DNA of 64,000 nt from assembly GCF_963558415.1 (NCBI RefSeq), contig NZ_CAUWGY010000002.1, positions 5,318-69,317 on the forward strand, written 5' to 3'. This DNA is from an uncultured Ruthenibacterium sp. (GTDB taxonomy: Bacteria > Bacillota > Clostridia > Oscillospirales > Ruminococcaceae). The translations under genes were made by a program, and so were the position numbers. Of the stretch, positions 60,923 through 62,369 are shown one piece after another. The notes under the pieces were generated by a model. It made no database searches. It worked only from the letters and a program-made list of their open reading frames with translations, and was not told where the DNA came from. The first letter of the stretch is position 1, and every line of letters starts with the position of its first letter.

Positions 60923-61486
60923 TTAAGCGAAAAGTCGATCAGGATTGTTTTTTGACTGTACGGCATCGACGCGAACATCAAACGAAAGCGCCTGGTTCTT
61001 TGCAGAATTTCCAGTATCCTCCGGAATGCAAAGGAGGAATGTCAAAGTACAACGTTCGCTTCCCTTTAAGGGTTCAACGCTTTGTGCCGGTTGCTGCTTG
61101 TTGAGCTCGGACGCCTTGCCCTCAAACAGCACCTTATCTCCGTCCTTAATCGTTACATCCAGAATATCCGCTAAATCACCGGACACATTTTCCAGATAAA
61201 GATTGTAGTAGACATCGATCGTGCCCTCGTTTTCTATGTAAAAATTCTTTACCATAGTCCTTCCGGGCTCCAGCAAAAACTCTTGATCGCTGATGATCTG
61301 CTCGCCACCGTTGAGGTTCAACTTGAGCGTGCCAGTCTGAAAGGTATTTTCATCCACGGAAACCTGTGGATAGGAAAGTGCAAAGGTTGCAATGCACAGT
61401 GCGACAACCAGTAAAATCACACCGGCCACTCTTGCCACCAGCTTCTTTCTGGTCACATGCTGTGTAGTCTCACTTTGCATATTCAT
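60923..61486 (-). CDS. Minimal TasA/camelysin-like secreted protein (~187 aa; candidate major fibre subunit)
   Basis: Basic N-terminus plus TM helix (VAGVILLVVALCIATFALS), then ENTFQTGTLKLNLNGG; PGRTMVKNFYIENEGTIDVYYNLYLENV; C-terminal NQALSFDVRVDAVQ. Start at Met41 behind AAGGAGG, overlapping the upstream gene by 17 nt. Confidence 0.65.
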   Translation of the reverse strand: MNMQSETTQHVTRKKLVARVAGVILLVVALCIATFALSYPQVSVDENTFQTGTLKLNLNGGEQIISDQEFLLEPGRTMVKNFYIENEGTIDVYYNLYLENVSGDLADILDVTIKDGDKVLFEGKASELNKQQPAQSVEPLKGSERCTLTFLLCIPEDTGNSAKNQALSFDVRVDAVQSKNNPDRLFA

Positions 61487-62369
61487 TCCTCGAGGCCTCC
61501 TTTTTGCGCCAAAAATAGATGCATACAAGCAACAAGGAGGAACCTGCCGCAAGAATGCTCCAAAGCAGCAGCTCTGTTGTATCGCCCGTCTGGGGAAGCG
61601 GTGCAAGAGCCTTTACCTGATCCGTTACGTACCAGTCAAAGTCCGCCTTGAGCTGTGCTCCTTGGTATTCATTTCCCACCGAAGTATCCAATGAGACATC
61701 GATTTGATAATACAAATCGTTTTTCCCATCCGACGCAGTTTCTACCTTTTGGGAAAATTCTTTTTTATTCACTTGGTCAAACGGAGCATCGCACAATACC
61801 ACGCCATCGTTTAAGCGTGTCACTTTGATATTCAACACTTTGCCCAAGTTGAGTGTTTGATCCGTCACTTCCGTACGGAAAGCCAGAGTAATATCCGTAT
61901 TATGATAAGCTCTCACGCAGAAATATCTTGTTTCTACATCGCCGGGAACCATATTCTGTACCTGGAACTTTTCATTGGCCTGAGGCATTCCCTGATACAA
62001 CAACAAAGCCGAAGCCTGCACCTCTGTAGTCGCCTGTTCCGAAGAAGATGAATTGGAATTGTTTGAAGCCGTGCGGTTACCGTTGCTTGTCCGGTTCGAC
62101 ACAACAGCCTTCTCATCATCCGAAACATCTTTCGTTTGCGCAGATGTTGAAGTAGCGCTCAAAGTAGAAGTTGTATTAGATGTAGAGGACTCATCCTTCT
62201 CATCCAACATGCTTTCCGGCACGTTCATCACAGTCGGTTCCGCTGATTCTGCCGCCTGACGCTGGAACAAATTCACAGCCAATGCCACAGCGCTCACAAG
62301 CACCAAACAAATCAGAAGAACGATCACCGCCTTCAGCGCAGTCGAATTTTTTTTGTTGTTCTTTTCCAT
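61470..62369 (-). CDS. LPQTG-anchored surface protein with S/T/N-rich stalk and TasA/camelysin-like domain
   Basis: MEKNNKKN plus TM helix; low-complexity SSTSNTTSTLSATSTSAQT...NNSNSSSSEQ; beta-rich domain ending GNEYQGAQLKADFDWYV; C-terminal LPQTGD plus a hydrophobic helix plus RKKEASR (sortase sorting signal). Confidence 0.75.
   Translation of the reverse strand: MEKNNKKNSTALKAVIVLLICLVLVSAVALAVNLFQRQAAESAEPTVMNVPESMLDEKDESSTSNTTSTLSATSTSAQTKDVSDDEKAVVSNRTSNGNRTASNNSNSSSSEQATTEVQASALLLYQGMPQANEKFQVQNMVPGDVETRYFCVRAYHNTDITLAFRTEVTDQTLNLGKVLNIKVTRLNDGVVLCDAPFDQVNKKEFSQKVETASDGKNDLYYQIDVSLDTSVGNEYQGAQLKADFDWYVTDQVKALAPLPQTGDTTELLLWSILAAGSSLLLVCIYFWRKKEASRNEYAK

Follow-up and report, generated by a model that had tools for sequence, protein, structure and literature searches.

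How are TasA-type protein fibres held on the cell that makes them? Even for Bacillus subtilis, whose TapA is associated with the wall in a manner still to be explained, the attachment is not clear, and for Clostridia only gene-context proposals have so far been available. The question is raised by a locus in the DNA of an uncultured Ruthenibacterium sp. (NCBI RefSeq assembly GCF_963558415.1, contig NZ_CAUWGY010000002.1, positions 5,318 to 69,317 of the forward strand), a stretch of 64,000 nucleotides (nt) that was analysed as a whole and is called here the window; all coordinates below refer to it. On its minus strand (61470..62369) lies a gene for a protein of 299 amino acids (aa), hereafter the anchor, which ends in a putative cell-wall sorting signal. 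This gene runs directly into another one (60923..61486, same strand), encoding a minimal TasA-like subunit of 187 aa. The sequences and structural models lead us to favour, with a probability of about 0.55, the reading in which the anchor, linked covalently to the wall, serves as the TapA-like base or initiator of a TasA-type fibre built by donor-strand exchange. The anchor family would then offer a concrete answer to the question, namely covalent sortase anchoring through a diverged subunit with a tethered donor strand.

The anchor open reading frame (ORF) starts with an ATG at 62369, downstream of the purine-rich ribosome-binding site GGAAGAGGTGG, and ends with a TGA at 61472-61470 after 299 codons. 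The gene was delineated from the ORF itself, TIGR hidden Markov models (HMMs), a family alignment and an AlphaFold2 (AF2) model built from a 46-sequence alignment. Its product falls into several parts, all encoded on the minus strand. Residues 1-31 (62277..62369), as read from the sequence, comprise a Lys-rich n-region, a hydrophobic helix and a putative signal-peptidase site, the canonical A-L-A/V at residues 29-31; the n-region and helix together extend over residues 1-35, with a hydrophobic stretch of about 20 residues, and AF2 predicts a helix at residues 9-41. Cleavage of the signal peptide would take place after A-L-A. The model for SipW-type signal peptides, TIGR04088, gave no match to the anchor protein, whereas three of its neighbours do match. 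The remaining parts are a donor-strand-like motif, TVMNVPESML, at residues 46-55 (62205..62234; family alignment and hhalign), a disordered Ser/Thr/Asn-rich tether at residues 56-118 (62016..62204; family alignment and AF2), a beta-sandwich core at residues 119-248 (61626..62015; AF2, Foldseek and hhalign), and, lastly, a signal for cell-wall sorting at residues 258-299 (61473..61598; motif and TIGR HMMs), made up of LPQTG, D, a hydrophobic helix and RKK with a tail. In the AF2 model the core, of about 130 aa, forms a nine-strand beta-sandwich with predicted local distance difference test (pLDDT) values of about 85-95; residues 44-114 are below 50, the low-complexity part amounting to about 55-63 aa. 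This layout agrees with the original prediction, made from the sequence alone, in the order of the parts (signal or transmembrane helix, stalk, beta-rich domain, LPQTG-D...RKK) but not in their sizes, which had been put at 70-80 aa for the stalk and 150-160 aa for the domain. Nor does the stalk link the domain to the sorting signal, as the title of that prediction had it: it is N-terminal to the domain, and LPQTG (residues 258-262; 61598..61584) follows the last core strand after only about 9 residues.

The C-terminus of the anchor clearly resembles a sortase substrate. It scored above the curated cut-offs of both TIGR03063 srtB_target (21.4 vs. 18.15) and TIGR01167 LPXTG_anchor (20.1 vs. 15.9), with LPQTG being followed by D, a 24-residue hydrophobic stretch TTELLLWSILAAGSSLLLVCIYFW and RKK. 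Motif, helix and basic tail are kept together in 206 of the 245 full-length homologues, which disposes of the possibility, raised with the original prediction, of a chance LPQTG. The family form of the signal is [P/S/L/A]PxTG-D, a helix and RRKKE, where Asp almost always stands after the pentapeptide. Among the pentapeptide variants PPQTG occurs 83 times, PPKTG 24 times, SPGTG 17 times and LPQTG 4 times, so that PPxTG-D is the family consensus and the LPQTG of the window a minority variant. In (S/P)PxTG with a D behind it, the SrtB of C. difficile cleaves the T-G bond (PMC4155245), and the match of the family form xPxTG-D to this experimentally cleaved motif was counted in favour of sortase anchoring. 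A class B sortase gene (62798..63565, plus strand), divergent to the anchor gene, is present in the window (TIGR03064, 160.2 bits vs. a cut-off of 153.75); the PDB sequences closest to it are solved SrtB enzymes, and the sorting-signal peptide ALAPLPQTGDTT is its predicted substrate. In divergent family members the pentapeptide decays by degrees, as in SPEVGD, QPVLGD, PPKMGD and SPQTDD, the helix and the RRKKE tail being retained, and such lineages may have switched from wall to membrane anchoring.

The anchor belongs to a large family. A word-indexed search with residues 113-299 returned 175 homologues of 250-320 aa, none of them named and none with a Pfam domain except Gram_pos_anchor, and of 1.84 billion cluster representatives (50% identity), searched exhaustively with a profile, 988 reached E <= 1e-3 and 466 reached E <= 1e-30. 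When one genome per species was scanned, 190 loci were found, nearly all of them in gut Clostridia, mostly Oscillospirales with some Lachnospiraceae; the named hosts include Hydrogeniiclostridium, Merdimmobilis, Yeguia, Soleaferrea, Gallibacter, Agathobacter and Butyrivibrio crossotus. The family has neither a Pfam nor an NCBIfam model, and no name in any source annotation. Shared by this many clusters and species, the anchor architecture is no matter of chance.

Is the core TasA-like, as the original prediction held in comparing it with TasA and camelysin? In simple tests it is not: BLASTP of the anchor against the 187-aa protein was not significant, Pfam and NCBIfam gave no match to the core, and none of 46 anchor-family members matched Peptidase_M73 (PF12389) at E <= 0.1. 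Comparison of profiles gave a different result. With hhalign, the core family aligned to the 187-aa family, represented by sequences that were all PF12389-positive, with a probability of 91.7 (E 7.6e-7, 114 columns), and to the N-domains of the large TasA-like paralogues with a probability of 96.2 (E 2.2e-9), while reversed-sequence controls remained below a probability of 1. The landmarks common to the core and TasA-like families are PGD/EPG, a strand L..VL.I.V, and the C-terminal GNEYQ.A.L.ADF vs. GN..Q..L.FD. The C-terminal strand of the anchor, GNEYQ..L.ADF, also aligns with TasA QNKYQGNSIKLQFSFEATQ, and its echo in the 187-aa protein and in TasA, already noticed in the original prediction, turned out to be part of the profile alignments.

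The structural comparison points in the same direction. Foldseek searches with the AF2 anchor model returned FimG with its donor peptide (1.1e-4), FimA (1.8e-4) and the TasA fibre 8aur (4.5e-4), followed by PapA, CfaB and archaeal bundling pili 7ueg (5e-3), so that both the TasA and the archaeal bundling-pilin folds with which a comparison had been proposed are among the matches. The template modelling (TM) scores are modest, 0.3-0.46, with 8aur at 0.30/0.38 and FimG and FimA ranking slightly better. A search of all PDB sequences with the A1 family profile found only FliL, at E 0.1. Weighing the positive profile comparison and the structural matches, with their modest TM-scores, against the negative BLASTP and Pfam tests, we read the core as a diverged TasA-superfamily domain that is a remote relative of PF12389 and not a member of it; the earlier assignment holds in this looser sense.

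The core alignment begins at anchor residue 120, which corresponds to partner residue 54, just past the partner donor strand (V-S-V-E-x-N-L-F-x-T-G, residues 42-52). Directly after the signal helix, the anchor family bears a motif with the consensus T-V-T-V-P-D-N-L-I-G, which shares its register and the Asn with that donor strand; hhalign aligned the two at E 3.5e-3 for the motif alone and at E 4.6e-7 for the whole N-terminus including the signal helix. In TasA-type proteins the donor strand is directly N-terminal to the core, whereas in the window protein 63 disordered residues separate the donor-like motif from it, and the alignment shows the stalk as an insert in the hinge that connects the donor-like strand to the core. 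Across the family the tether varies from 13 to 138 aa (median 53, never less than 13 aa) and consists of Ser (17%), Gly (12%), Thr (11%), Glu (11%), Ala (10%), Asp (8.5%) and Pro (7.6%), among others. In the AF2 monomer models the anchor motif is undocked, and the partner donor strand likewise, which is the behaviour expected of strands acting in trans.

The 187-aa partner, which comprises a signal, a donor strand and a core, was identified by Pfam, hhalign and Foldseek: it passes Peptidase_M73 with 35.7 bits vs. 22.5, and its AF2 model (pLDDT 84) has the TasA fibre 8aur as a clear top match (3.6e-6). Its ATG at 61486 lies within the anchor gene, such that the two overlap by 17 nt, and its Shine-Dalgarno sequence AAGGAGG (61496..61502, minus strand), 9 nt upstream of the ATG, is inside the anchor coding sequence, exactly as had been predicted. 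The same arrangement was found in related loci. A homologue of the 187-aa gene (about 182 aa) is directly downstream of the anchor in 77 of 78 loci; when the best Shine-Dalgarno-supported start of the small gene is taken, the genes overlap by 4-26 nt, most commonly by 8 nt, in 70 of 74 loci, and the Shine-Dalgarno sequence matches AGGAGG at 5-6 of 6 positions in 72 of 74. As far as sequences can tell, translational coupling of the anchor and the small subunit is conserved across the family.

In-frame fusions of the anchor to the subunit were found in other genomes (P0153, P0176, P0194 and P0253, full sequences read). Their layout, with the sorting signal followed by a short basic loop and the partner signal peptide, is topologically coherent, and implies either a polyprotein processed by sortase and signal peptidase or recurrent assembly frameshift errors. 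Long anchor ORFs (429-465 aa) in loci L031, L053 and L070 were noted by length alone. A 1:1 partner would account for the coupling and the fusions no less well than a subunit that polymerises in bulk. Of the coupled synthesis of a base and a polymerising subunit suggested in the original prediction, the coupling is thus well supported, while the polymerising role now has this competitor.

The usual gene order in the family is anchor, small subunit and sipW, after which there are usually one to six larger TasA-like paralogues. In 58 loci a SipW signal peptidase (TIGR02228, 1e-18) is encoded further downstream on that strand, and most of the remaining loci are truncated by contig ends. In the exported parts of the anchor and small subunit families, no Lys reaches a conservation of 80%, which argues against both sortase-mediated polymerisation and an isopeptide lock of the BsaA type. 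A SpaA-type sortase-polymerised pilin was rejected on three counts: there is no conserved pilin Lys, the fold matches are to donor-strand pilins and not to Cna, and the sortase is of class B. The BsaA-type "exchange and lock" isopeptide, based on an N-E-K triad, was rejected as well for want of an invariant Lys (K80 75%, K179 77%); the triad is partial, with the donor-strand Asn (N47 in the subunit, N53 in the anchor) and Glu E73 conserved.

A course of assembly may be proposed as follows. After export, the sortase would cut between T261 and G262 and join Thr261 to peptidoglycan, leaving the anchor core in the wall about 9 residues from the attachment point. With the wall link at the C-terminus, the tether points away from the wall anchor, and it would present the donor-like strand outward through the wall (63 aa here; up to about 20 nm when extended). 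By analogy with the TapA N-terminus and TasA, the donor-like segment could then enter a secreted subunit at its acceptor groove. The core of the anchor, itself incomplete, may for its part take up the donor strand of the 187-aa subunit translated along with it; this subunit would either fill the anchor groove or be the first polymer unit. More subunits would join by strand exchange, including both the 187-aa protein and the larger beta-helix-bearing paralogues. A bolder version, which we regard as possible but would sooner doubt than assert, has the tether thread outward from the wall-fixed core and seed chaperone-free donor-strand exchange, the minimal subunit being an obligate 1:1 partner that fills the anchor groove. 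Anchor, minimal subunit and SipW would then form a self-contained fibre-initiation module across hundreds of gut Clostridia species, decorated by variable beta-helix paralogues. If true, such a module would join two Gram-positive surface-assembly systems, sortase and TasA-type, in a distinct way.

Several observations weigh against the anchor as a wall-linked fibre base. LPETG is not cut in vitro by the C. difficile SrtB (PMC4155245), and the window copy is the rare LPQTG. About 15 divergent members are devoid of the motif Thr or Gly and yet retain the helix and the basic tail; for these, membrane anchoring may be enough. A sortase gene is near the anchor (<= 10 kb) in only 3 of 81 loci, the window included, but many Clostridia have a single housekeeping SrtB, so that sortase synteny is not required. 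In C. perfringens HN13 the BsaA oligomers are membrane- and not wall-associated, and the polymers of an srtB mutant are normal (PMC7395162; 10.1101/2024.11.04.621531). The similarity of the donor-like motif taken alone is weak (E 3.5e-3), and the window copy TVMNVPESML deviates from the consensus. A 1:1 coupling or fusion is unexpected between an anchor and a bulk polymer subunit. Finally, a search with an HMM for which 59 SipW genes from related loci were used detected no SipW in the 64-kb window nor in the four genes of the 10 kb beyond its end, in which respect the window is atypical; all five TasA-like genes of the window have SipW-type signals, and the peptidase must therefore be encoded elsewhere in the genome.

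Some of these points would suit a membrane-tethered accessory protein that organises assembly at the membrane-wall interface, with the helix and the basic tail as its anchor and the pentapeptide unprocessed or dispensable. Members with SPEVGD, QPVLGD or PPKMGD retain precisely the helix and the RRKKE tail, the sortase is syntenic in so few loci, and the BsaA oligomers of C. perfringens HN13 are anchored in the membrane, not in peptidoglycan (10.1101/2024.11.04.621531). We nevertheless consider this unlikely, as the 206 of 245 full-length members that keep xPxTG-D have the exact C. difficile SrtB form (PMC4155245). The signal scores above the cut-offs of curated HMMs, and in the window the anchor gene has a class B sortase gene beside it. 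Synteny, for its part, is dispensable where there is a single housekeeping SrtB, as in many Clostridia. Conserved coupling and natural fusions, which imply equal stoichiometry, could also point to a closed 1:1 heterodimer in which the anchor and the 187-aa protein swap strands reciprocally, serving as a cap, chaperone or length regulator that ends fibres or holds subunits assembly-incompetent. The tether, never shorter than 13 aa, is long enough for fold-back, and TapA and CapP have been described as chaperone-like (PMC10151520, PMC13082335). Yet AF2 leaves the motif undocked in cis, the small subunit, with a strong Shine-Dalgarno sequence to itself, can be made in excess, and some loci seem to contain only anchor, small subunit and SipW (the detection of large paralogues being incomplete), where the small subunit is the sole polymer candidate; we give this explanation a low probability.

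The original prediction had also connected the Ser/Thr-rich stalk with O-glycosylation and with the glycan locus of the window. In a corresponding scheme the N-terminal helix stays uncleaved and a glycosylated Ser/Thr stalk lifts the TasA-like domain, which only accepts the 187-aa donor strand. The acceptor part agrees with the alignment of the anchor core with the partner core minus its donor strand and with the best structural matches being donor-strand-complemented pilins; the window tether is indeed Ser/Thr/Asn-rich, and a nonulosonic-acid locus with YfhO is present at 2-18 kb of the window. But the C-terminal wall link comes right after the domain, which leaves no wall-domain spacer for the stalk to be, a canonical ALA/V site follows the helix, and the strand motif N-terminal to the stalk is unaccounted for. 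The tether ranges over 13-138 aa and is often rich in Gly/Glu/Asp/Pro instead of Ser/Thr, no conserved glycosyltransferase was found in the anchor neighbourhoods of related loci, and some 45 kb separate the anchor gene from the glycan locus. The scheme is an improbable one, and the glycosylation link was not borne out. Highly improbable, in our estimate, is a stand-alone sortase-anchored adhesin with an Ig-like domain unrelated to fibre assembly and a coincidental neighbourhood. It could appeal to the missing Pfam match, the non-significant BLASTP against the neighbour and the Foldseek TM-scores of 0.3-0.46, but it is contradicted by the small TasA-like gene directly downstream in 77 of 78 loci, overlapping or fused, in a family found in at least 190 species, and by profile-profile homology with null reversed controls.

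The preferred reading, a wall-linked and TapA-like fibre base, can be set against known systems. TapA donates an N-terminal strand resembling that of TasA and is proposed to be at the filament start (PMC10151520). Like TapA in the B. subtilis tapA-sipW-tasA operon, the anchor would be a minor component whose gene accompanies those of a TasA-type subunit and of SipW (the latter in the family loci), and it has the same predicted succession of signal peptide, donor-strand-like segment, spacer and Ig-like domain. The two proteins are unlike in sequence, no similarity being found with the A1 profile against the PDB, which should include the TapA structure of PMC10151520. The V-set Ig domain of TapA is complete and unrelated to TasA, whereas the anchor core is itself apparently a diverged TasA-like domain and hence probably also has an acceptor groove. 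Besides, TapA has no sorting signal and a spacer of about 13 aa, in contrast to the sorting signal and the 63-aa tether of the anchor. The incomplete Ig-like pilin fold completed by a neighbour strand, which for the anchor is suggested by the model, also recalls FimF/FimG and PapH, minor subunits that define one fibre end. Chaperone-usher subunits, however, are Gram-negative, depend on a chaperone and an usher, and have neither a sequence relationship to the anchor nor a covalent wall link.

In Clostridia, TasA-family genes often neighbour LPxTG proteins and sortases, and most C. perfringens strains have an LPXTG-bearing BsaB-like gene beside a divergent srtB, from which SrtB wall cross-linking was proposed on the basis of gene context (10.1101/2024.11.04.621531). 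The anchor locus resembles this sipW-bsaA-bsaB system in combining a TasA-family paralogue with LPXTG, TasA-like operon partners and a divergent class B sortase. Compared by its description, the C. perfringens LPXTG protein is an ordinary BsaB-type subunit with no reported tether between donor strand and core, and sipW is first in its operon, whereas the order in the anchor family is anchor, small subunit, sipW. An AlphaFold 3 (AF3) model has the LPXTG anchor of the Clostridium amylolyticum abpX locus (A0A1M6GRE1) join the AbpX fibril by donor-strand complementation (10.64898/2026.01.04.697558). There, too, a predicted LPXTG wall anchor is encoded beside a TasA-superfamily fibril subunit; by description, the abpX-locus anchor is set apart by its AbpX subfamily, a 10-transmembrane signal peptidase and another organism group. 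As to the sorting signal, the C. difficile SrtB substrates CD2831 and CD3392 share with the anchor family (S/P)PxTG, D, a hydrophobic helix and a basic tail, and are cleaved by a housekeeping class B sortase (PMC4155245, PMC4591827), but their passengers are unrelated (collagen-binding adhesins, hydrolases), and the LPQTG of the window is not among the forms known to be cleaved by that SrtB.

LPXTG anchoring of TasA-like fibres has therefore already been proposed in two preprints, from gene context or from AF3. In the literature we found no description of the anchor family, of a split donor strand or of an obligate coupling to a minimal subunit. Gut commensals of humans and animals harbour the family in abundance (about 990 clusters, at least 190 species), and in them fibres that display beta-helices on the surface could matter for adhesion, aggregation and glycan binding.

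The anchor and 187-aa genes open a six-gene operon, entirely on the minus strand, that continues with genes for proteins of 465, 493, 650 and 299 aa; each of these four begins with a SipW-type signal peptide or an M73 N-terminus. A promoter-like site TTTAAA-16-TATAAT (62608..62635, minus strand), a consensus match only, lies upstream of the anchor gene. On related contigs a gene finder called a 56-67-aa ORF, at 62372-62575 (minus strand) in the window, that ends 2-3 nt before the anchor start; none of 80 related loci has a counterpart, so this ORF is unlikely to be a gene. The operon is closed by a strong intrinsic-terminator-like hairpin with a 16-bp stem and a T run (54546..54583, minus strand).

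The 465-aa protein (59309..60706, minus strand) has a SipW-type signal, a TasA-like N-domain and an extra C-terminal domain; in the 493-aa protein (57748..59229, minus strand) the same two N-terminal elements are joined to a pectate-lyase-like beta-helix, and in the 650-aa protein (55684..57636, minus strand) to a large C-terminal region. Taken as a group (55684-60706), these three large paralogues combine a TasA-like N-domain with beta-helix or pectate-lyase-like C-terminal regions, and there are from 0 to 6 such genes per genome; they could be fibre subunits displaying glycan-binding or enzymatic modules. The last operon gene (54676..55575, minus strand) encodes the other 299-aa protein, with a SipW-type signal (FSWAWFNTS), a small domain and QGTDPSQQDPN repeats encoded by 7.7 copies of a 36-nt repeat. 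Its homologues occur in 38 related loci, with no obvious function, and a shorter copy of 275 aa in locus L082 indicates that the repeat number varies.

Elsewhere in the window, a glycan locus of the nonulosonic-acid type (2056-17553, minus strand), about 45 kb from the anchor gene and with no link to it found, encodes a NeuB-family synthase, a UDP-GlcNAc 2-epimerase, a DegT aminotransferase, a nucleotidyltransferase, GFO/IDH/MocA oxidoreductases and a GNAT, along with YfhO and DUF2142 as membrane proteins. On the other side of the anchor, a radical SAM/SPASM gene starts at 63651 (63651-64000, plus strand), between the sortase gene and a second cluster of four TasA-like genes (406+, 271, 931 and 880 aa), which is located just past the window (L081, 1-7453).

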